Source of the DNA: Altericista sp. CCNU0014
GTDB lineage: Bacteria > Cyanobacteriota > Cyanobacteriia > Thermosynechococcales > Thermosynechococcaceae
Length of the DNA: 24,000 bases
Reading direction: 5' to 3'
NCBI RefSeq assembly: GCF_044923475.1
Contig: NZ_CP137338.1
Location: 4,151,404-4,175,403, forward strand
The first letter of the stretch is position 1. Each line of letters opens with the position of its first letter. Positions 5,059 to 23,132 of the stretch are shown here, one piece after another. The position numbers and the translations under genes are program-made. Below the pieces are notes generated by a model that was given only the letters and a program-made list of their open reading frames with translations, was not told the DNA's origin and made no database searches.

Positions 5059-6460
5059 TCCTGCCACTATTACAACGGTTAAAACAGCCAAAGGTATTAA
5101 GATTGTCACCCCTAGTGAAGGACGCGATCAGGCTTCCACTGGCTATGCTTGGTGGGCTGGTAATATGCGCCTTGCTAACATGTCTGGTCGGTTTCTGGGC
5201 GCGCACTTGGCCCATGCCGGACTGATGGCGTTTTGGGCTGGAGCCATGCTGCTGTTTGAGGTGTCTCACTTTACGCCCGATAGACCCATGTACGAGCAGG
5301 GCTTAATTTTAATGCCCCATGTTGCCACCTTAGGATTTGGTGTGGGGGCTGGGGGGCAGGTCATTGATATCTTTCCCTTCTTTGCAATTGGGGTCATTCA
5401 CCTCATCGGCTCGGGAGTATTGGGTATTGCGGGGACGTACCTTGCCATTCGCGGCCCCGCAAAGCTTCCCGGTTTTTTAGATTTTGACTATGGCGACAAG
5501 GACAAAATCACCCTAATTCTGGGATTCAACCTGATTTGGCTCGGCGTTTTTGCCCTGCTCTTTGTCTGTAAGGCCATGTTTTGGGGCGGGATCTACGACA
5601 CTTGGGCACCAGGGGGCGGCAACGTGCGCCTGATTACCCATCCCACCCTCAATCCGCTGACGATTTTTGGTTACTTGGTTCGAACGCCCTACGGTCAGCA
5701 GGGATGGATTATCGGCGTCAACAATATGGAAGATCTGGTGGGCGGTCATATCTGGGTGGGTGTCCTGCTGATTGCAGGTGGCATCTGGCATGTTGTCACC
5801 ACACCCTTTAAATGGACGCATAAGATTTTTACTTGGACAGGGGAAGCCTATTTAGCTCAGAGCTTAGGCAATATCTGCGGGCAAGCCTTTATTGCAACGG
5901 CGTTTATCTGGTTTAACACGACGGCCTATCCCAGCGAGTTTTATGGGCCAACTGCAGCGGAAGCTTCTCAGGCTCAGGCACTCACGTTTTTAGTGCGGGA
6001 TCAAAATCTTGGTGCAAACGTGGTTTCTGCGCAAGGGCCTACGGGCCTCGGGAAATATTTGATGCGATCGCCCAGCGGAGAAATCATCTTTGGTGGAGAA
6101 ACCATGCGCTTTTGGGATTTCCGAGGGCCTTGGCTAGAGCCGCTGCGCGGCCCTAACGGGTTAGACCTCGATAAAATTCGCCACGATGTCCAGCCCTGGC
6201 AAGTGCGACGCGCAGCGGAATACATGACCCATGCACCCCTCGGTGCCCTTAACTCAGTGGGCGGAGTGGCCACCGAAATTAACTCCGTCAACTTCATGGC
6301 AACCCGAACGTGGTTAGCAGGCTCTCACTTTATTCTGGCCTTCCTGTTTTTAGTGGGGCATCTCTGGCACGCCGGACGGGCCCGTGCGGAAGCAGCTGGA
6401 TTTGTGCGGGGCATTAATCGCGATCGCGAACCGGTCAAGGCCATGGCTCCCCTAGATTAG
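5042..6460 (+). CDS. psbC2: Photosystem II CP43, far-red paralog; GTG start preferred, alternative ATG at 5015
   Basis: [46 protein letters not shown] and onward matches CP43. GAGGAGG at 5026-5032 lies 9 nt before GTG 5042. A GTG start inside the psbD 3' end is the established arrangement for psbC. Confidence 0.9.
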
Positions 6461-6585: not shown

Positions 6586-8160
6586 ATGGGACTCCCTTGG
6601 TACCGCGTCCATACAACGCTCATTAACGATCCAGGACGGTTGCTGGCGGTGCATTTGATGCACAATGCCCTCTGTGCCGGATTTGCTGGTTCCATGCTTT
6701 GGTTTGAACTATTTTCCTATGACCCTAGCGACCCGATCCTCAACCCAATGTGGCGACAGGGCTGCTTTTTGATGCCGTTTGTGGCGCGTCTCGGCGTAAC
6801 CCATTCTTGGCAGGGCTGGTCGATTACGGGCGAAAAGCTGGCAGATCCGGGGTTTTGGACCTTTGAAACGGTGGCGATCGCCCATATTATCTTTTCCGGC
6901 TTAGAGTTTCTAGCTGCCGTTTGGCATTGGAACTACTGGAATATTTCCACCTTCTTCGATCCGAAGACCAACAAACCCGCCCTCGATCTGCCCCGGATCT
7001 TTGGGATTCATTTGCTGCTGGCAGGACTGGCCTGCTTTGGATTTGGTGCATTCCACCTGACGGGGCTGTTTGGCCCAGGAATGTGGGTTTCCGACCCCTA
7101 CGGCTTGACGGGGCACGTCCAGGGTGTCGCCCCTGTCTGGGGGCCAGAGGGCTTTAATCCGCAAAATCCAGGAGGAGTAGTGGCCCATCATATTGCCGCA
7201 GGCATTGTTGGAATTGTGGGCGGACTGTTTCATATCTTCGTTCGTCCCCCAGAGCCACTGTACAGAGGGCTGCGCATGGGTAACATCGAAGGAGCCCTGG
7301 CCAGCGGGTTAGCCACCTTCTTTTTTGCGGCCTTTATTGCTACGGGTAGTATGTGGTACGGCACAGCTACCACGCCCATTGAGCTCTGGGGGCCCACACG
7401 CTATCAGTGGGATCAAAACTACTTCAACAATGAAATCAATCGGCGCGTCCAGGGAAGTTTAGCCGCAGGGAAGAGCCTTTCAGAAGCCTGGTCTGCGATT
7501 CCAGAAAAGCTGGCCTTTTACGACTATGTGGGCAATAGTCCCGCAAAGGGCGGACTATTCCGAGTAGGCCGCATGGTCGATGGGGACGGTGTGGGTCAAG
7601 CATGGCTCGGTCATCCTGTCTTTAAGGACAATCAGGGTCGAGAGTTGTTTGTGCGGCGGATGCCCAACTTCTTTGAAAACTTCCCTGTCGTGATGTCCGA
7701 TGAAGACAATATCGTTCGTGCAGATGTGCCGTTCTTCCGAGCCAAGGCCAAATATAGCGTCGAGCAGACGGGGGTAACGGTCAGCTTTTACGGCGGTCAG
7801 CTAGACGGTCAAACCTTCGACAATCCGCCTGTTGTCAAAAAGTACGCCCGTAAGGCCCAACTGGGCGAACCCTTTGAATTTAATACTACCATCCACAATT
7901 CCGATGGCATCTTCCGCACCAGTAATCGCGGCTGGTTTGCCTTTTTCCATGCCTGTCTTGCCATTCTTTGGTTCTTTGGACACCTCTGGCATGGAACCCG
8001 CGCCCTCTTCCAAGATGTCTTTGCTGGGATCGATCCAGATCTAGATGAGGAGCAAGTCGAGTGGGGCATTTACCAAAAACTGGGCGACAAAACCTCGCGC
8101 AAGAAGCCAGTGCTTCAACCCGCTTTGTCGGCGTTTCCATCTTCTCAAGAGGGTTCGTGA
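6586..8160 (+). CDS. psbB2: Photosystem II CP47, far-red paralog, 524 aa
   Basis: [26 protein letters not shown]...NPMWRQG...[13 protein letters not shown] is collinear with CP47. About 14 extra C-terminal residues relative to the remembered canonical length of about 507-510 aa. AAGGAG precedes the ATG. Confidence 0.95.
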
Positions 8161-8187: not shown

Positions 8188-8385
8188 AACCCTTCTCCCA
8201 ACTACGGTGTACACACAAGAATTGGTTATGTCGTTTCACACTCTAGATCCCCCTAAATCCCCCTTAAAAAGGGGGACTTTGAATCCAGTCCCCCCCTTTT
8301 TAAGGGGGGCTAGGGGGGATCGAATGCAGGGTTTCAAGGTTCTTCAGACTTGTGTGTACACCGTAGCCCAACGGGGAGAAGGGTT
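8188..8385. mobile_element. MITE-like nested-hairpin element (about 198 bp) in the psbB2-psbH2 spacer
   Basis: Terminal inverted repeats AACCCTTCTCCC..CTACGGTGTACACACAAG (8188-8219) and its complement (8349-8385), with 12 + 18 bp matching around a small indel. The inner G/C-run palindrome is GATCCCCCTAAATCCCCCTTAAAAAGGGGGA / TCCCCCCCTTTTTAAGGGGGGCTAGGGGGGATC. No clear target-site duplication. Confidence 0.7.
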
Positions 8386-8439
8386 GCGATCGAAGGAAGA
8401 AATTTATGCAAGAGATTGAATATTTCAATGGAGTAAGCG

Positions 8440-8802
8440 ATGGAAACCACAAAATATCCTCCCAAAAAGATCGCTCCCATCCAGTATCTGCTGAGAAAAC
8501 TAAATTCTAATACTGGCATGGTGGTTCGGGGTTGGGGTACAGCCCCCGTCATGGTTGTTTTAATGCTGCTATTTTTCTTGTTTTTACTCATTATTTTTGA
8601 AATTGCTAATTCATCCATTCTGCTGGAGGGCATTAACATCGATTGGTCAGTCCTCGATCGATACAGTGGCACACCCGCAACCCAAAACCCGTCTTTTGCG
8701 ACGACGGGAATTGGAATCTTTTTGGGGCTACTGGCATTTGGACTATGTTGCGCTGCGTTCATCGTCTACGGATACCTAACCTATCCAGACGACGCCAAAT
8801 AG
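8440..8802 (+). CDS. psbH2: Photosystem II PsbH, far-red paralog, with a roughly 50-aa C-terminal extension carrying a predicted second TM helix (120 aa total)
   Basis: Residues 13-69 ([56 protein letters not shown]) are collinear with canonical PsbH of about 64-67 aa. The reading frame stays open to 8802 and encodes [30 protein letters not shown] lies 6 nt before the ATG. Confidence 0.85.
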
Positions 8803-8822: not shown

Positions 8823-11432
8823 GTGCAGGTCATGACGCAGCGCTTAATTAACATGCAGTCTGATGATGCTAGGCCAAAGCCGTTCGATTCCTTTGCACCT
8901 TTTCCCCAAGGGCAATTAGATTCGTTTGCGCTGTTGCTGCACCGAATGATCGATCGCATTCGGCAGTCTTTAGAACTTCCAGAAATTCTAACTGCCACGG
9001 CGGCAGAGGTACGAGATTTTCTGCAAACAGATCGCGTGATGGTGTATCAGTTTCATGCCGATGGGAGTGGGGAGGTGGTGGCGGAGTCTATTCAAGACCG
9101 GAAACTGCCTTCGCTCTTGAGGCACAATTTCCCCGCAGAAGATATTCCGGCTGAAGCGCGATCGCTATTTCTGAGCGCCCGTCAGCGATCGATTGTGGAT
9201 GTTGAAGCGCAAGAAATCGGCGTGAGCCCCTTAGACAGTGGATCGGTTGGAAAAGCATTGAGGTGCGATATTCGGTTTCGTCCGGTCGATCCCTGTCACG
9301 TTGAATATTTAACGGCAATGGGAGTACGGTCATCCTTGGTCGTGCCAATTTTGGTCCAAAACCGCCTGTGGGGGCTGCTGGTATCTCACCACAGTAAACC
9401 GCTCCGCATTACAGAGCATTCACTTCAAGTAGTTCAGCTGGTTGCCGATCAGGTCTCTATTGCGATTTCCCAATCTGACCTCCTCCTCCAAACTCGCTTA
9501 CGTGCCATTCAAGAAGCCACCGTCAATCGAGTTACGATGTTGCTCCACGCCACGCCAGAGATGCAATTTCAAGCTGCCTTAGAACAAACGATTGCGACCC
9601 TGCATGGGACGGGAGGCAGGCTTTATATTGCTGCGCCGAATGCCCATCAAGTACCGCAGCTCTTTACCTACGGCAGTCAGCCAGCAATGACAGATTGCAG
9701 CAACGGAGTTGAACGTATTGAGCAGCATCTCCACTGGCAAACATGGCTGGCGATGGAAGACGCCGTTGTTAAAGAGGCTGGGATTTGGGCGATTGCCGAT
9801 CTATACCAATCTGTCATGCCCTCCGATCTCGCGATGGCTTTTCTAGAAACACCTGTAAGAGGGCTGCTAACGGTGCACCTCTGCTATCGCAAACTCACCT
9901 TAGGTTACCTCAGTATTTTTCGACGTGAAATCGACCTAGAACGCATTTGGGCCGGACAAATCGATCCAGACGATCCGCGTCAACAGCGGCCTCGTCTGTC
10001 ATTTGAAACCTGGCGAGAGCAAAAAAAAGGTCAGGCACAGCCATGGACTGCCGCAGACATCGATCTAGCCAAGGAATTAGGAGAGCATTTCGCTGGTGCG
10101 ATCTATCAAGGCGAGCTGTACAAGCAAGTTCACGCCCTCAATGCCAATCTCAAGCTAGATATTCAAAAGCGCAGGCAGGCAGAACAAGAGATTGTTGCCC
10201 TTAATACAGAACTTGAAAGCCGCGTACTAGAGCGTACCGCCCAGCTTCAGCAGGCCAATGAAGATCTTGTGAAAGAAATTAAGGAACGGGAGCGGATTTG
10301 GGTAGCGCACCAGCAAGCAGAAGCCTCCCTAGAGCGTCTCAGTCGTCACAATCAACTCATTTTAAATTCTGCAGGCGAAGGGATTTACGGTCTGAATCTC
10401 CAGGGCAAAATTACCTTTGCCAACCCCGCAGCGGCCAGAATTTTAGGCTACGAAGTCAATCAGCTGATCGGGCAGTGGATGCACACTCTGCTGCATCACT
10501 CCCAGCCCGATGGTAATCTGTATCTTCTCCCAGAAAACCCGATTTATGCCACCCTACGGGAGGGCAAACTTCAGCAAATAACAGGCGATCTATTTCGCTG
10601 TCGAGATGGATCGATGATTCCCGTAGAGTATGTTAGCAGCCCAATTCGGGAACGAAACAAAATTGCGGGAGCTGTCGTTTTGTTCAAAGACATCACAGAA
10701 CGACAACTGATAGAAAAAATTAAAGATCAGTTTGTTTCCATTGTCAGTCACGAACTCCGTACCCCACTCACTTCCATCCGCAGTACCTTAGGGCTACTCT
10801 CTAGCGGCTGGCTCAAAAGCCACCCCGAAAAAAGCCAGCGCATGCTGGACATCGCGTTTTCCAATACCAATCGCCTGGTGCGACTCATTGGGGACATCCT
10901 GGATATTGAGCGCATGAAGTTTGGCAAGGTTGCGATGGAGAAAACGCACTGCAATGTTGCTGAGGTGATGATTCAGTCTGCAGATGCGATGCGGGCTATG
11001 GCCCATAAGGCTGACATTACGCTGCTGGTGGAGCCAGTAACGGCCAATCTCTGGGCTGACTCCGATCGCATTATTCAAACGCTGACGAATTTACTGAATA
11101 ACGCCATCAAATTTTCGCCGCCCAATACCACCGTCCGGCTGAAAGCGGAATTGCAAACCCACTCCCAAAGGCCTCAGCGTTGCCGAACCCCCTACCTTTT
11201 GTTTCAAGTCATTGATGAGGGTATTGGCATCCCAGAAGACAAACTGGAATCCATTTTCGATCGATTTCAGCAGGTAGATGTCTCAAACGCCCGCAGCCAA
11301 GGCGGAACGGGACTAGGCTTAACCATTTGCCGAGAGATTGTGGAGCAACACGACGGTCAAATTTGGGTTGAAAGTCAGCTCGGTCGAGGCAGTACATTTT
11401 ATTTCACACTACCGGTGAGCGATCGTGATTAA
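8823..11432 (+). CDS. rfpA: Knotless phytochrome histidine kinase RfpA (GAF-PHY-coiled coil-PAS-HisKA-HATPase), 869 aa; GTG start at 8823 or ATG at 8832
   Basis: Bilin-binding GAF motif RPVDPCHVEYLTAMGVRSSLVVPI. PHY tongue PRLSFETWRE. PAS region around NSAGEGIYGLN. H-box SHELRTPL, N-box LLNNAIKFSP, G-boxes DEGIGIP and GGTGLGL. No N-terminal PAS domain precedes the GAF domain. Located within a FaRLiP cluster. Confidence 0.9.
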   Translation: MQVMTQRLINMQSDDARPKPFDSFAPFPQGQLDSFALLLHRMIDRIRQSLELPEILTATAAEVRDFLQTDRVMVYQFHADGSGEVVAESIQDRKLPSLLRHNFPAEDIPAEARSLFLSARQRSIVDVEAQEIGVSPLDSGSVGKALRCDIRFRPVDPCHVEYLTAMGVRSSLVVPILVQNRLWGLLVSHHSKPLRITEHSLQVVQLVADQVSIAISQSDLLLQTRLRAIQEATVNRVTMLLHATPEMQFQAALEQTIATLHGTGGRLYIAAPNAHQVPQLFTYGSQPAMTDCSNGVERIEQHLHWQTWLAMEDAVVKEAGIWAIADLYQSVMPSDLAMAFLETPVRGLLTVHLCYRKLTLGYLSIFRREIDLERIWAGQIDPDDPRQQRPRLSFETWREQKKGQAQPWTAADIDLAKELGEHFAGAIYQGELYKQVHALNANLKLDIQKRRQAEQEIVALNTELESRVLERTAQLQQANEDLVKEIKERERIWVAHQQAEASLERLSRHNQLILNSAGEGIYGLNLQGKITFANPAAARILGYEVNQLIGQWMHTLLHHSQPDGNLYLLPENPIYATLREGKLQQITGDLFRCRDGSMIPVEYVSSPIRERNKIAGAVVLFKDITERQLIEKIKDQFVSIVSHELRTPLTSIRSTLGLLSSGWLKSHPEKSQRMLDIAFSNTNRLVRLIGDILDIERMKFGKVAMEKTHCNVAEVMIQSADAMRAMAHKADITLLVEPVTANLWADSDRIIQTLTNLLNNAIKFSPPNTTVRLKAELQTHSQRPQRCRTPYLLFQVIDEGIGIPEDKLESIFDRFQQVDVSNARSQGGTGLGLTICREIVEQHDGQIWVESQLGRGSTFYFTLPVSDRD

Positions 11433-11793
11433 GCATATTCTCATCATTGACGATGAACCGGATATCCGAGAGGCAACCCAGGTTTGTCTGGAAGTTTCTA
11501 AGGGATGGAGTGTCACAACTGCCAATTCTAGCAAAGAAGGTCTGGCAATGGCAGCATCCGAACAGCCTGATGCAATTCTTTTGGATGTGATGATGCCGGA
11601 CGTGGATGGATTGGCGACGTTTGAGCTGATGCGAGCCAATCCTGAAACGCAACATATTCCAGTCATTTTACTCACAGCAAAAGCTCAACCCGACGATCGT
11701 CGCCGCTTTATGGAGCTTGAAATTACGGCAGTGATCACTAAACCCTACGATCCGTTAACTTTAGCCGATCAAATCGAAAAAATCTTAAGTTAA
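11425..11793 (+). CDS. rfpC: Single-domain CheY-like response regulator RfpC, 122 aa, GTG start overlapping the rfpA stop by 8 nt
   Basis: ILIIDDEPD, LLDVMMPDVDG and ITKP receiver motifs with no output domain. Immediately downstream of and overlapping rfpA. Confidence 0.85.
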   Translation: MIKHILIIDDEPDIREATQVCLEVSKGWSVTTANSSKEGLAMAASEQPDAILLDVMMPDVDGLATFELMRANPETQHIPVILLTAKAQPDDRRRFMELEITAVITKPYDPLTLADQIEKILS

Positions 11794-12014: not shown

Positions 12015-13157
12015 ATGATGACCCAATTCGATCGGGCGATGTTCGATCAGGCGATCGCCAGCGATCAAATTTGCACCGATCGAGTCTCTACAAGGAATGC
12101 TTTAATTCAGCGTCAGAATCCCCTATCTTGGGAGCGATTTTGCCAATGGGTAACCAGTACCGAAAACCGCTTTTATCTAGGGTGGTTTGGGGTGCTGATG
12201 ATACCCACACTCTCTACAGCAGCGATTGTTTTCGTCATTGCCTTTATTGCTGCCCCTGCGGTAGATATCAACGGCATTGGCACTCACCTGTCTGGATCTT
12301 TATGGGATGGAAATAGCCTTTTAACCGCTGCGGTGGTTCCCACATCGGCTGCAATTGGACTACATTTTTATCCCATTTGGGATGCGGGTTCTGTCCAAGA
12401 GTGGTTGATCAATGGCGGCCCTTATCAGCTCATCGTGCTGCACTTTGCAATTGGCATCATCTGCTACCAAGATCGAGAGTGGGAGCTGTCCTACCGTTTG
12501 GGCATGCGTCCTTGGATTTCCATGACCTTCACTGCGCCCGTTGCTGCAGCGTTATCCGTTTTAATTATTTACCCGATCGGTCAGGGTGGATTTGCGGAAG
12601 GGATGCCCCTCGGAATTTCCGGTACTTTCCACTTTATGTTTGTGTTTCAGGCAGAACACAACATTCTTATGAGTCCCTTTCACCAGTTGGGGGTTATAGG
12701 GGTCTTTGGGGGCGCTTTTCTTTGTTCTGTACATGGGTCTTTAGTGACTTCAACACTATTTAAAAAGACAAAGCCCCACGAACCGATTAATGCCGGATAT
12801 AAACTGGGTCAAAAAGAAGAAACTTATAGTTTTAAGGCCACTCAGCGCTATCAACAGAAACTCTTTTGGAAAGGTCTGTTTTTTCCTAGCTCGCGCTCAG
12901 TTCATTTTCTGCTGGCGGCATTGCCCGTGGCAGGCATCTGGTCAGCAGCGCTAGGGGTTGATATTGCGGCCTTTAACTTTGAAAAACTGACCTTTGACCC
13001 GCCTGTCGTCATTGACAATCCATCAGGCACTATTCCCACGTGGGCCAATGCTGTCCGTAGCGCTAACGCAGGGCTGGCAATGGCGAGCGGACGGGATGGC
13101 AACCCCTTTCCGCAAATGTTGGAGTTCAGCGATGAACCCGTAAGGGTTACGCGCTAA
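12015..13157 (+). CDS. chlF: Chlorophyll f synthase (super-rogue D1, PsbA4), 380 aa
   Basis: D1 fold ([15 protein letters not shown]...[13 protein letters not shown]...). It has CYQDREWEL where D1 has CYMGREWEL. D170 is replaced by E (GFAEGMPLG). The C-terminal Mn-ligand block EVMHERNAHNFPLDLA is replaced by [18 protein letters not shown]. There is an N-terminal extension of about 20 aa. Confidence 0.9.
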
Positions 13158-19595: not shown

Positions 19596-20072
19596 ATCCG
19601 CATCCTTGGTTTAGACCCTGGCTTAGCTTCCCTGGGATATGGGGCGATCGCCCTTTCCCAATCCGCACCCGATCGAACGCCAGAGTTGATCGATTTTGGC
19701 ATCATTCAAACGCCAGCCAAAACGCCCATCGGAGATCGGCTTTGCACGATTTGTGCGGACTTGGCTACCGTCATCGATCGAGTTCAGCCCGACCTCGTGG
19801 CGTTAGAAAAGCTGTTTTTTTACCGAATGGGTAACATTATTTTGGTTGCCCAAGCCCGTGGTGTCGTTGCCTTGGTGATTGCCCAGCACAAGCTGCCCCT
19901 GATAGAATTCACGCCCGCGCAGATCAAGCAGGCACTGACGGGCTATGGCAATGCTGACAAAACTGCCGTGCAAGAGGCGGTGGCAAGGGAACTAAACCTA
20001 AAGGCCATCCCAAAACCCGATGATGCTGCCGATGCTTTAGCCGTGGCTTTAACAGCGCGATTGCAGCTTTAA
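19596..20072 (+). CDS. ruvC: Crossover junction endodeoxyribonuclease RuvC; apparent non-canonical ATC start
   Basis: (I)[15 protein letters not shown]...[21 protein letters not shown]...[17 protein letters not shown]...[14 protein letters not shown] is collinear with RuvC, including the catalytic Asp in LGLDPG. No ATG, GTG or TTG occurs in frame between the stop at 19539-19541 and the TTG at 19686. GGAGG at 19586-19590 lies 5 nt before ATC 19596. Confidence 0.8.
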
Positions 20073-20234
20073 CTGCGCTCGCAATATTTTTTTGCCAAAA
20101 TAAAACCTAAAAAAGAACCAACGGCGTTCGAGATGGGCATCATGAGGTAGTTGATAAGCCATTTCACCCCTAGCTTTGATGCGACGCAGTGTTGGTTCGT
20201 TCGTTTGGCTATTGTCAGCCTAGCGAATTAATGA

Positions 20235-21179
20235 CTAAGCGTCCATCGAGCTAGGGTTTTCTTGTGCGAAGGGAGCGATGGCGGGAGATTTGGGCGCGCT
20301 TAAACTGCGCCAGTAAAGGGTGCCAGCCACCGCCATGAAGACGAGATAGGCGATCGCTTGGCCTAGGAAAAGGCGATCGCGGTAACCCAAAAAGGTCTTC
20401 AGCAAAATACCGGGGAACTGACGATCTGGCAAAATCAGGTGTCCGTCCCACAATAACGGTCCCAAAATGCAGGAATCGGCGGATGGGATCGGACAAAGAT
20501 TTGTGGAAACGAAGGGATTCAGGATCCCGAGGGCTGCATCGAGCTGTTTGGTCGCTCCTAAAACAAGGCCGCCGACAATCAGCAATAAGAAAATCCCCAT
20601 GATCTGAAAAAACTGCTTGAGGTTGATGCGGATGCCGAGGGCAAAGAGCGCCCAACCGATTCCCGTTGCGCCTATGAGACCGGCGATCGCCCCCGCAACG
20701 GAAGACCACCCGCTCTGAAGTTGGGCCACGATAAACAGCGCGGTTTCGATGCCCTCTCGCAGTACCGCCACAAAAATGAGCGTCCAGATGCCCCATTCGG
20801 CTTTCCCGTCGGCGGCAATCATTTGCTTTACAGATCCTTCAATTTCGGCTTTGGCAGTGCGGGCTTGCCGAGTCATCCAGATCAGCATCCAGGTGAGCAT
20901 GGCGATCGCCACTAGGCTAAAGCTCAATTTGAGAAACGGCAGCAGCACTGCTGCGTAGGGTTGCTCGGATGCTTGCAAGCTCTGGAGCAAGGCGCTGAGT
21001 CCTACACCCACGAGGACGCTCCCGACCAATCCTGAAGCTAAGCCAAAGTACACCCAATGCTTGAGTTGAGGCTGCTGTGCTTTCTGAAGCAGGGCTAGGA
21101 CGATGCCGACCACGAGAGCTGCTTCGACGCCTTCTCGTAGGGTAATGACGAAGGTGGGAAGTGCGGCACTAATATCCAC
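20235..21179 (-). CDS. FTR1/EfeU-family high-affinity iron permease, 314 aa
   Basis: Two REGxE motifs (REGVEA near the N-terminus, REGIET mid-protein) in a polytopic hydrophobic protein. Confidence 0.85.
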   Translation of the reverse strand: MDISAALPTFVITLREGVEAALVVGIVLALLQKAQQPQLKHWVYFGLASGLVGSVLVGVGLSALLQSLQASEQPYAAVLLPFLKLSFSLVAIAMLTWMLIWMTRQARTAKAEIEGSVKQMIAADGKAEWGIWTLIFVAVLREGIETALFIVAQLQSGWSSVAGAIAGLIGATGIGWALFALGIRINLKQFFQIMGIFLLLIVGGLVLGATKQLDAALGILNPFVSTNLCPIPSADSCILGPLLWDGHLILPDRQFPGILLKTFLGYRDRLFLGQAIAYLVFMAVAGTLYWRSLSAPKSPAIAPFAQENPSSMDA

Positions 21180-21402
21180 GGGTCTTTCTCAAGGGATGAC
21201 GGCTGGAATCTCTTCTCTATTATGTCGAGTCTGAGATAGAGGGTGTATTTTTCGCTCGATAAATGGGTGTAGTAATGGTGCACGATCGTTACTTCGTCGC
21301 TTCAGATCGGGGTCGCATCGCGGTTGGCGAGGCAGTGGCGATCGCGGGTTCCAATCGCGACACGTTGAAACTGCATTTCAAGCATTTGATTGCAATGAAA
21401 GT

Positions 21403-21993
21403 TTGTCTTGGCGACCCCATCGATATGATGCCAATTACCCTGATACCTCGCTTAATTTTAGGTTTGGGACAGCGGAACTGTTGGATTGGCGCGATCGCCT
21501 AGACGAGCTGGAATCTAGCACTAATCCATTTGCGACGGTGGTAATGACGCATTTGAAGGTGGTTGAGACAAAACGCAATGTGGATCGGCGTAAGGCTTGG
21601 AAGTTTGCGTTAACTCGGGCGCTCTATGAGAAAAGCTACCAACGGCAAGAGATTCTGGATTTATACCGCTTTATCGATTGGGTTATGATTTTACCAGAGG
21701 CAGTAGAGCGTGAGTTTTGGCAGGAACTCCAAGTCTTTGAGGAGGAAAGAAAGGTGACTTATGTAACGAATGCGGAACGGTTCGGGTTTGAGCGAGGGAT
21801 TCAGGAGGGGTTACAACATGAACGATCGCTTATCCTCCGCCTGCTTTCCCGACGTGTAGGGATTCTCTCTTCTGAGGTGCGATCGCAGGTTGAATCCTTA
21901 CCCCTGGAACAACTGGAATCGCTGGGCGAGGCGTTACTGGATTTTTCTTCTGCGGCTGATTTGGATGAGTGGCTGCGGACTCTTGGTGCGTAG
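21403..21993 (+). pseudogene. 5'-truncated Rpn-family (PD-(D/E)XK putative transposase/nuclease) gene retaining its C-terminal DUF4351 region
   Basis: The C-terminus LILRLLSRRVGILSSEVRSQVESLPLEQLESLGEALLDFSSAADLDEWL is the typical DUF4351 signature of this abundant cyanobacterial family. Only about 140 nt of open frame lies upstream where about 150 codons of nuclease core are expected, and the only start is a TTG. Confidence 0.6.
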
Positions 21994-22029
21994 CTATCGC
22001 ACTCGTAATACTGCGGCCTAAGGGGCGAT

Positions 22030-22126
22030 CGCCTTGGATCGAGAACCGATTGAGAGCCTCCTCGCTGCAGTCGAATTGCTCTACCGCATGGCGACGTTCC
22101 AGCTTTTCAATACTCAGAACCGTCAT
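22030..22126 (-). pseudogene. Remnant (about the first 30 codons) of a GNAT-family TacT/KacT-like toxin
   Basis: MTVLSIEKLERRHAVEQFDCSEEALNRF matches the toxin N-terminus (..L...H....FDCG...LN.(F/W)L). The start overlaps the antitoxin stop by ATGA. Similarity is lost after about codon 30, and the ORF runs antisense into the DUF4351 gene. Confidence 0.55.
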
Positions 22127-22404
22127 GACGAAGCAGATTCATCAAAAATGCTCAGCTCGTTCAGCAGACGTTCCATGCGCTCATGACGACGGGGCGGCGC
22201 ATCGAGCGCGGCCATAAAAGCAGTCCATTGTTCGGCATCCAGTCCAAAATGCTGCCGATCGGCCAGTGTTTCATCGGCTTGCGCCAAAGCACTTTCGAGC
22301 ACGAAATCGCTGACAGAACGGTGGGCAGCGGCACGGTAGAGCTTTTGCTTGGCGGCAGGAGTCAGTCGCAAATCTAGTTTCTCAGAACGGGTTTTAGTTG
22401 TCAC
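22123..22404 (-). CDS. DUF1778 (TacA/KacA-like, RHH) antitoxin, 93 aa
   Basis: KLDLRLTPAAKQKLYRAAAHRSVSDFVLESALAQADETLADRQHFGLDAEQWTAFMAALDAPP follows the DUF1778 pattern (L.LR......K..I..AA...G.SVSDFV...A...A...I). Confidence 0.8.
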   Translation of the reverse strand: MTTKTRSEKLDLRLTPAAKQKLYRAAAHRSVSDFVLESALAQADETLADRQHFGLDAEQWTAFMAALDAPPRRHERMERLLNELSIFDESASS

Positions 22405-22477
22405 GGTATTACCCCGATTTGTAAGCTCATCCGAACATAAACGTCCGACAATGTCATAACATTCTTGTCGTTCAAAA

Positions 22478-22804
22478 TTATTGCAATGTGGGTACAGAGG
22501 GCGTCAGCTTTTGCGGTGCAAGACGATAACCCATCGCCTTCAAAATTGCGTTCACGCTGCTGAATTGCGGATTGCCATTTTCCGAAAGGGCTTTCTGCAA
22601 CCCTTTGCGGCTCAGGCCAGAGACCTCGGCAATCTGACTGACACCTTTGACACGGCTTACGATTCGCAGAGATGACAGCAGTGCAGCAGCATCGCCACTT
22701 TCCGCATACTCGTCGAACAGCACAGTAATGTAGTCATCAATTTCATCTGGATGCTTGCGAAGATATTCCTCTTCAACCTCGCCGATCGTTCTATGATTCC
22801 GCAT
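22478..22804 (-). CDS. HigA-type addiction-module antidote protein (HTH), 108 aa
   Basis: HTH segment VSQIAEVSGLSRKGLQKALSENGNPQFSSVNAILKAMGYRL. Lies downstream of the RelE/HigB-like gene and overlaps it by 14 nt. Confidence 0.8.
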   Translation of the reverse strand: MRNHRTIGEVEEEYLRKHPDEIDDYITVLFDEYAESGDAAALLSSLRIVSRVKGVSQIAEVSGLSRKGLQKALSENGNPQFSSVNAILKAMGYRLAPQKLTPSVPTLQ

Positions 22805-23132
22805 CGCTCAGATACTCCCGCCAATAGACTTTAGCTCGTGTAATATCATCATCCTGACTGCTTTTATCCCCACCACATAGCAGAACAACTAGATCGTTGC
22901 CGTGTTCGCCGAAATAAACTCTATAGCCGGAACCGAAGAACATCCGTAATTCGCTTACCCCTTCTCCGACTGGCTTGCAATCACCATAATTGCCCTGCTG
23001 CATTCGTGACACACGGGCAAGGATACGCTTTCTTCCCATGACATCCCTCAGGCCATTCATCCATTCGCTGAAGGGTTCCTGTCCATCGGGTGTCGTGTAG
23101 ACGATAACCCTTCTCGGTAATGCATTTGTCAC
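22791..23132 (-). CDS. HigB/RelE-superfamily addiction-module killer protein, 113 aa, GTG start
   Basis: PFSEWMNGLRD...ILARVSRMQQGNYGDCKPVGEGVSELRMFFGSGYRVYFGEHGNDLVVLLCGGDKSSQDDDI is typical of the 'killer protein' family. The toxin-first gene order is typical of HigBA modules. Confidence 0.8.
   Translation of the reverse strand: MTNALPRRVIVYTTPDGQEPFSEWMNGLRDVMGRKRILARVSRMQQGNYGDCKPVGEGVSELRMFFGSGYRVYFGEHGNDLVVLLCGGDKSSQDDDITRAKVYWREYLSDAES

Follow-up and report, generated by a model that had tools for sequence, protein, structure and literature searches.

A double-length psbH2 reading frame in a cyanobacterial FaRLiP cluster very probably encodes PsbH2 fused to PsbH2'

Introduction

A far-red psbH2 gene that can be read without interruption to about twice the length expected of PsbH raises two questions: whether its second half is a genuine part of the protein and, if so, what that half is. 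A framework for the second question is given by the 2.17 Å cryo-EM structure (9T5T) of far-red photosystem II (PSII) from Chroococcidiopsis thermalis PCC 7203, which contains PsbH2', a far-red-exclusive subunit of 48 aa without a white-light counterpart (Nat Commun 2026, PMC13396731). PsbH2' forms a single transmembrane (TM) helix beside PsbB2 and PsbH2, near the dimer interface but not touching it, at a site that is membrane-exposed in white-light PSII; it is part of the binding site of the chlorophyll (Chl) f B617 and covers this pigment (PMC13396731). Chl B617 is ligated by PsbB2 His114, and the hydrogen-bond donor to its formyl group is PsbB2 residue 107, which is Glu, Gln or Ser in far-red proteins and Leu in white-light proteins (PMC13396731, PMC9843442). 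The hydrogen bond from PsbH Thr5 to Chl 617 is lost in PsbH2, which has Ala instead, and the far-red PsbH2 motif in PCC 7335 comprises Ala11-Pro12-Gln14-Tyr15 (PMC9843442). A further suggested role of PsbH2' is the docking of far-red allophycocyanin or the exclusion of white-light phycobilisomes (PMC13396731).

The original prediction for this DNA regarded a two-helix PsbH as undescribed, which the literature contradicts: such proteins were reported in 2022 (PMC9325196) and named fused PsbH2:PsbH2' isoforms in 2026 (PMC13396731). In the earlier paper, 6 of 31 FRL-PsbH sequences (Aphanocapsa GSE, Leptolyngbya, Elainella, and strains without a name) had a second helix homologous to a hypothetical protein of 48 residues that other FaRLiP strains encode downstream of psbH2 (Gisriel, Cardona, Bryant & Brudvig 2022, PMC9325196). 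Its authors proposed from the basal position of the fused form that it is ancestral, and that the split form perhaps arose by fission of a double-helix gene (PMC9325196). Phylogenetic signal on fusion versus fission is weak in the published attempts. Fused isoforms occur in Leptolyngbyales and Elainellales, and other species bearing psbH2' have it immediately downstream of psbH2 (PMC13396731). Our literature search found no further descriptions of the fused form beyond these two papers, and no proteomics or structure of any fused isoform.

Results

A single reading frame with two modules

The analyzed DNA, a stretch of 24,000 nucleotides referred to here as the window, carries genes of far-red light photoacclimation (FaRLiP) in the order apc, apcE-like, apc, psbD, psbC, psbB, psbH2:psbH2', an rfpA-like gene for a phytochrome-type histidine kinase, an rfpC-like CheY gene, a divergent psbA, psaA, psaB, psaL, and psaF. 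The gene of interest lies between psbB2 and rfpA, and the order psbC2-psbB2-psbH2 (fused, 120-121 aa)-rfpA-rfpC is the same in L018-L021, the metagenomic contigs that contain the closest homologs. The features discussed below are as follows.

6586..8160 (+): psbB2, encoding the partner subunit, a far-red CP47 of 524 aa (906 bits for the NCBIfam CP47 equivalog)
8430..8433 (+): GGAG, putative ribosome-binding site 6 nt 5' of the psbH2:psbH2' ATG (read from the sequence)
8440..8802 (+): gene read, with high probability, as fused psbH2:psbH2' (ORF list, 22 full-length homologs, synteny with relatives L018-L021)
8440..8646 (+): PsbH2 module, codons 1-69, comprising the N-terminal cytoplasmic arm and TM helix 1 (Pfam and NCBIfam matches, alignment to 9t5t_H)
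8539..8613 (+): predicted TM helix 1, approximately codons 34-58 (Kyte-Doolittle peak, AlphaFold2 helix)
8647..8694 (+): probable lumenal linker, codons 70-85, variable in sequence and length (alignment, dN/dS, AlphaFold2 pLDDT)
8695..8799 (+): PsbH2' module, codons 86-120, comprising F86-A-T-T, TM helix 2, and the probably cytoplasmic end T114-Y-P-D-D-A-K (9t5t_G match, split-ORF alignment, dN/dS)
8704..8778 (+): predicted TM helix 2, codons 89-113 (Kyte-Doolittle peak, AlphaFold2 helix)

The ORF list shows a single frame at 8440..8802 (+) with an ATG start, 120 codons, and a TAG stop. The GGAG that we regard as its putative ribosome-binding site, as judged from the nucleotide sequence, is also kept in L018 and L019. 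Most cyanobacterial PsbH chains in the PDB comprise 62-69 aa, and a protein of 120 aa is therefore roughly twice the normal length, as had been predicted. The first part is readily recognized as PsbH: Pfam PsbH (PF00737) matches residues 17-62 (E=4e-17, 62.1 bits against a cutoff of 24.6), and the NCBIfam PsbH equivalog (NF002728) matches residues 17-69 (88.9 bits against a cutoff of 65). Searched by itself, the tail (residues 68-120) matched no family in the Pfam and NCBIfam profile scans, and PsbH2' is so far absent from both libraries.

The two modules share one frame, with neither a stop nor a restart between them. From codon 48 to codon 94 there is no in-frame ATG, GTG or TTG, and on this basis separate synthesis of the tail from this gene by internal initiation was ruled out. 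An antisense ORF of 142 aa (8334..8762, -) covers most of psbH2:psbH2'; it was rejected as a true gene since the homology and selection signals all lie in the + frame.

Two transmembrane helices

In a Kyte-Doolittle scan (19-residue sliding span, TM threshold of 1.6), two peaks exceeded the threshold, one of 3.18 at residues 37-55, representing the PsbH helix, and another of 2.66 at residues 91-109, with a polar segment between them. The predicted hydrophobic stretch of 25 residues is present and ends at nt 8778, as had been given, but it comprises residues 89-113 and starts at nt 8704 instead of about 8701. An AlphaFold2 model, computed from a 23-sequence alignment and used for helix boundaries only, has moderate overall confidence (mean pLDDT 62.5, pTM 0.34) and places helices at residues 34-64 (block pLDDT 68-80) and 87-114 (block pLDDT ~76), joined by a linker with pLDDT 53-59. 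A Foldseek search with this model against the PDB gave no match.

In residues 1-69, a basic cytoplasmic N-terminal arm leads into one TM helix, the organization that defines PsbH, and the charge bias falls on that arm (6 K+R and 1 D+E in residues 1-33). The second module has the single TM helix expected of PsbH2', as indicated by both the 2.66 peak and the AlphaFold2 helix 87-114. Since PsbH starts on the cytoplasmic side and its helix terminates in the lumen, we infer that the linker is lumenal, that helix 2 recrosses the membrane, and that the C-terminus, a tail of 7 residues (TYPDDAK), is cytoplasmic. The structural side of the original prediction, a second TM helix that leads the C-terminus back to the cytoplasm and puts a further membrane-spanning element beside CP47 (PsbB2) in far-red PSII, holds.

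The extension is conserved and under purifying selection

Canonical PsbH stops near residue 69-72, and one may ask whether a stop codon near codon 70 was lost here through a sequencing or assembly error or a recent mutation, leaving 50 extra codons that are untranslated or read through without function. The chance of 51 further open codons is about 9% ((61/64)^51, calculated by hand), so length alone is weak evidence for a real extension. The decisive evidence is conservation in the sequence. A search of 5.8 billion proteins returned 22 homologs, from genomes and metagenomes independently, all of which share the architecture (120-128 aa, 54-95% identity, 97-100% query coverage); they include proteins of Leptolyngbyaceae cyanobacterium JSC-12, Leptolyngbyaceae HOT.MB2.61, and Leptolyngbya sp. 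NK1-12. In the resulting 23-sequence alignment, tail residues T89, G96, L97, C104, Y110, G111, Y115, and P116 are invariant and F86, I108, and T114 nearly so, whereas the linker (approximately residues 73-85) is poorly conserved and contains indels, with variable sequence and length.

Selection was estimated from Nei-Gojobori counts against one relative, L019 (82% amino-acid identity, dS ~1.0-1.3), and the dN/dS ratio was 0.045 for codons 1-69, 0.79 for the linker (codons 70-85), and 0.056 for the tail (codons 86-120). Taken together, the homologs, the invariant residues and the dN/dS values indicate translation of the tail in the + frame, under about the same constraint as acts on the PsbH part. 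A stop codon lost near 8640-8660, against which the original prediction had cautioned, is refuted by the full-length homologs, the invariant tail residues and the purifying selection, seen in the tail at dS ~1.3; the homology of the tail to a solved PSII subunit (PsbH2', 9T5T chain G) stands against it as well, and we consider this explanation extremely improbable.

The tail corresponds to PsbH2'

In a PDB sequence search, residues 1-69 aligned end to end with PsbH2 of C. thermalis (9t5t_H, 69 aa; E=1.3e-23), and residues 85-119 of the full protein matched chain 9t5t_G, annotated as PsbH2' (48 aa; E=2.2e-4). With the tail alone as query, the match to 9t5t_G reached E=3.5e-5 over 36 aligned residues (query 17-52 to chain 12-47). 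The tail also aligns without gaps to 10 separate PsbH2' ORFs of 47-51 aa from Fischerella, Chlorogloeopsis, Nostoc, and Chroococcidiopsis. The far-red character of the first module is evident from the motif A12-P13-x-Q15-Y16, invariant or nearly so in the 23-sequence alignment, and from its N-terminus, which is 6-7 residues longer than in white-light PsbH: residue 17 pairs with residue 10 in Synechocystis PsbH (6wj6_H) and, in the T. vulcanus chains, with residue 9. The gene product is thus very probably a fused isoform of PsbH2 and PsbH2', two subunits of far-red PSII.

Fused and split forms

A degenerate DNA pattern based on invariant tail residues (T-x6-GL-x6-C-x3-I-x-Y-[GA]-x2-TYP, ~41 bits) matched the window once, against 0 matches expected. 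In a scan of one genome per species (185,579 species), the tail module was found at 17 loci, all of them cyanobacterial and many belonging to known FaRLiP strains. At 7 of the 17 the tail and the PsbH domain are in the same ORF, as in the window, where PsbH2' is colinear with PsbH2. These fused loci are:

Leptolyngbya sp. JSC-1
Leptothermofonsia sp. ETS-13
Leptolyngbyaceae RU_5_1
Leptolyngbyaceae HOT.MB2.61
Cyanobacteria RU_5_0
Synechococcales C42
Aphanocapsa GSE-SYN-MK-11-07L

The other 10 loci have the split form, a separate ORF of 47-51 aa (Fischerella, Chlorogloeopsis, Nostoc/Nostocaceae, Chroococcidiopsis) with its own GAGG-type ribosome-binding site and ATG. At the 9 split loci with upstream sequence (L006 excluded), psbH2' starts 111-260 nt past the stop of a psbH2-like ORF, in all three relative frames. 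psbH2' is therefore accompanied by psbH2 at all 16 assessable loci, in fused form at 7 and with a PsbH2-like ORF upstream at 9 (L006 excluded). In Fischerella muscicola PCC 7414 (L009), upstream of psbH2' at 5819-5901 (-), psbH2 ends early at a TAA codon (...EIDNSSILL*), and the codons for the usual G-I-N-M-N end continue in frame beyond it; this sequence points to a premature stop that strips the last few lumenal residues just upstream of a separate psbH2'.

No protein on record is identical to the window protein, and its nearest named relatives are from Leptolyngbyaceae. Together with its five closest metagenomic relatives (P0001-P0006, 120-121 aa), it has the shortest linker seen; this sub-clade, P0001-P0006, is known only from metagenomes, and the scan of species-representative genomes contained no representative of it. 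Split proteins begin with M-x-x-(I/M)-(Y/F)-L-A-Y-G-E-G-Q-F-A-S-T, and the element Y-G-(E/Q)-G-(Q/E)-F precedes helix 2 in all split PsbH2' and in several fused forms (JSC-12, RU_5_1, Aphanocapsa). In the window protein and its close relatives YG(E/Q)GQF is missing and T-Q-N-P-S-F is found instead, so lumenal contacts may differ in this sub-clade. Members of the sub-clade also have adjacent cysteines, C103-C104, inside helix 2.

The existence of both forms invites the alternative that the fused product is a precursor, cut in the lumenal linker after insertion to release separate PsbH2 and PsbH2', with the fusion serving only for 1:1 synthesis and co-insertion. The poor conservation, variable length and nearly neutral evolution of the linker (dN/dS 0.79) would suit such processing, as would the fact that in other lineages (Nostocales, Chroococcidiopsis) the two halves work as separate proteins. 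However, a variable loop is equally expected of a simple hairpin turn, the 23-sequence alignment contains no conserved cleavage motif in the linker, and we found no report of such processing in the literature. We regard cleavage as improbable.

The psbB2-psbH2 spacer and the surroundings of the cluster

The spacer upstream of the gene contains, at 8200-8372, a MITE-like insertion of ~170 nt with perfect 18-nt terminal inverted repeats CTACGGTGTACACACAAG (8202-8219, 8349-8366) and an inner G/C-rich palindrome (8246-8275 and 8292-8321, 87% complementary). The element is flanked by CCCAAC at 8194-8199 and 8367-8372, which may represent a target-site duplication. The closest relative, L018, has no such block, and its spacer measures 109 nt compared to 279 nt in the window. 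A hairpin AACCCTTCTCCC...GGGAGAAGGGTT between psbB2 and psbH2 is kept in the window (8188-8199 and 8374-8385), L018 (~2960-2990), and L019; in the window, the MITE-like element occupies its loop, so that the stem arms are 174 nt apart. For the PSII operon, this hairpin might serve as an element of processing, stability or attenuation.

Directly 3' of the CheY-type rfpC-like gene (11425-11793, +) lies a gene for a PsbA paralog of 380 aa (12015-13157, +) that scores 480.6 bits against a psbA equivalog cutoff of 596, a divergence that fits ChlF, the chlorophyll f synthase. Neither an rfpB-like gene (a response regulator with a DNA-binding domain) nor psbA3 was found within the window. The FaRLiP cluster ends after psaF2, and other genes span 19686-23132. 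The first is a RuvC-like ORF (128 aa from a TTG start), which the profile matches from position 26 and which is possibly truncated or mis-started; it is followed by an FTR1 iron permease (-), a DUF4351 protein, and a pair of small genes (-). The pair combines an antidote-type domain of the HI1420-downstream family with a weak Gp49-like match and resembles a toxin-antitoxin module.

Discussion

We propose that the gene is expressed under far-red light together with the other PSII genes of the cluster, and that its product would form a two-helix hairpin in which a lumenal loop of 16 residues joins PsbH2 to PsbH2' and both termini are cytoplasmic. The PsbH2 half would take the normal PsbH position on PsbB2 (CP47), and helix 2 would pack antiparallel beside it on the membrane-facing side, covering the peripheral, His114-ligated Chl f at B617 and stabilizing its binding, as in the split homolog of C. 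thermalis. The position of helix 2 in the complex and its role in shielding Chl f are inferred from the literature, by extrapolation from the split C. thermalis protein, to which the tail is ~49% identical. Of the residues at the Chl B617 site, PsbB2 encoded in the window carries Glu107 (nt 6904-6906) as well as His114 (nt 6925-6927), and together with the A12-P13-x-Q15-Y16 motif of PsbH2 these residues fit the published description of that site. The original prediction had offered two roles for the second helix. A pigment contact would match the split homolog in 9T5T, in which PsbH2' is part of the Chl f B617 site (PMC13396731). Occupation of the site of a neighboring low-molecular-weight subunit is not supported, given that PsbH2' has no white-light counterpart and that its site is membrane-exposed in white-light PSII.

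In addition, the fused protein may help to form the surface on which far-red allophycocyanin docks at the cytoplasmic side. A stronger version of this idea is that helix 2 acts mainly at the cytoplasmic surface, docking far-red allophycocyanin (ApcE2/ApcD3) or sterically excluding white-light phycobilisomes, with Chl f shielding being secondary. The most conserved tail residues (Y110, G111, T114, Y115, P116) do lie at the cytoplasmic end of helix 2, but only 7 residues extend past the helix, and the proposal derives solely from modeling in PMC13396731. Moreover, Chl B617 and the N-terminal arm of PsbH2 are in the same cytoplasm-proximal region, so the conservation of the tail does not separate docking from a pigment role. 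We consider a mainly cytoplasmic function unlikely, and the covering of Chl B617 remains our preferred reading of helix 2.

Tethering the two helices may also matter functionally. It is conceivable, at somewhat less than an even chance, that in this lineage mature far-red PSII keeps the two helices linked, which would enforce a 1:1 stoichiometry and joint assembly with the CP47 module, and that the lumenal and lipid contacts of the short-linker sub-clade are unlike those of split PsbH2'. Should the ancestral form be the fused one as well, gene fission would have given rise to PsbH2' as a photosystem subunit.

The two-helix form of PsbH2 is relevant to two topics that are already in print (PMC9325196, PMC13396731): how the most red-shifted peripheral Chl f of far-red PSII is held in place (B617, associated with the ~749-751 nm band), and how a new small PSII subunit originated. 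The present locus adds one more fused member, from a sub-clade otherwise known only from metagenomes and with the shortest linker seen. Its main value is confirmation, showing that a real and fairly recently recognized feature can be read from raw sequence.

Comparison with known systems

The canonical PsbH of 6WJ6 (chain H, 64 aa) and PsbH2 of Synechococcus sp. PCC 7335 (8EQM chain H, 66 aa) have the PsbH fold region and the TM helix in common with the window protein but stop just past the first helix. The far-red N-terminal extension is found in PCC 7335 PsbH2 as well, together with the Ala-Pro-x-Gln-Tyr motif. PCC 7335 has no psbH2' at all (PMC13396731), and canonical PsbH retains the Thr5 that hydrogen-bonds Chl 617 (PMC9843442), in place of which the window PsbH2 has Ala. 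PsbH2' of C. thermalis (9T5T chain G) resembles window residues 85-120 in the pattern F-A-(S/T)-T...G-L...C...I-x-Y...T-Y-P-x-D, and its partner PsbB2 has Glu107 and His114, like that of the window; in C. thermalis and Nostocales, however, psbH2' is a separate gene, while here it is covalently joined to PsbH2.

The closest likeness is to the fused PsbH2:PsbH2' isoforms of Leptolyngbyales and Elainellales, in which a single ORF, downstream of psbB2 in a FaRLiP cluster, encodes far-red PsbH followed by a lumenal linker and another TM helix. Those of JSC-12, HOT.MB2.61, NK1-12, and JSC-1 are 55-62% identical to the window protein over a full-length alignment, and the window sub-clade differs in having the shortest linker and in lacking the YG(E/Q)GQF that several of the fused forms contain. 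The gene is not new; it belongs, as a typical member, to the class of fused PsbH2:PsbH2' proteins described earlier for FaRLiP cyanobacteria.
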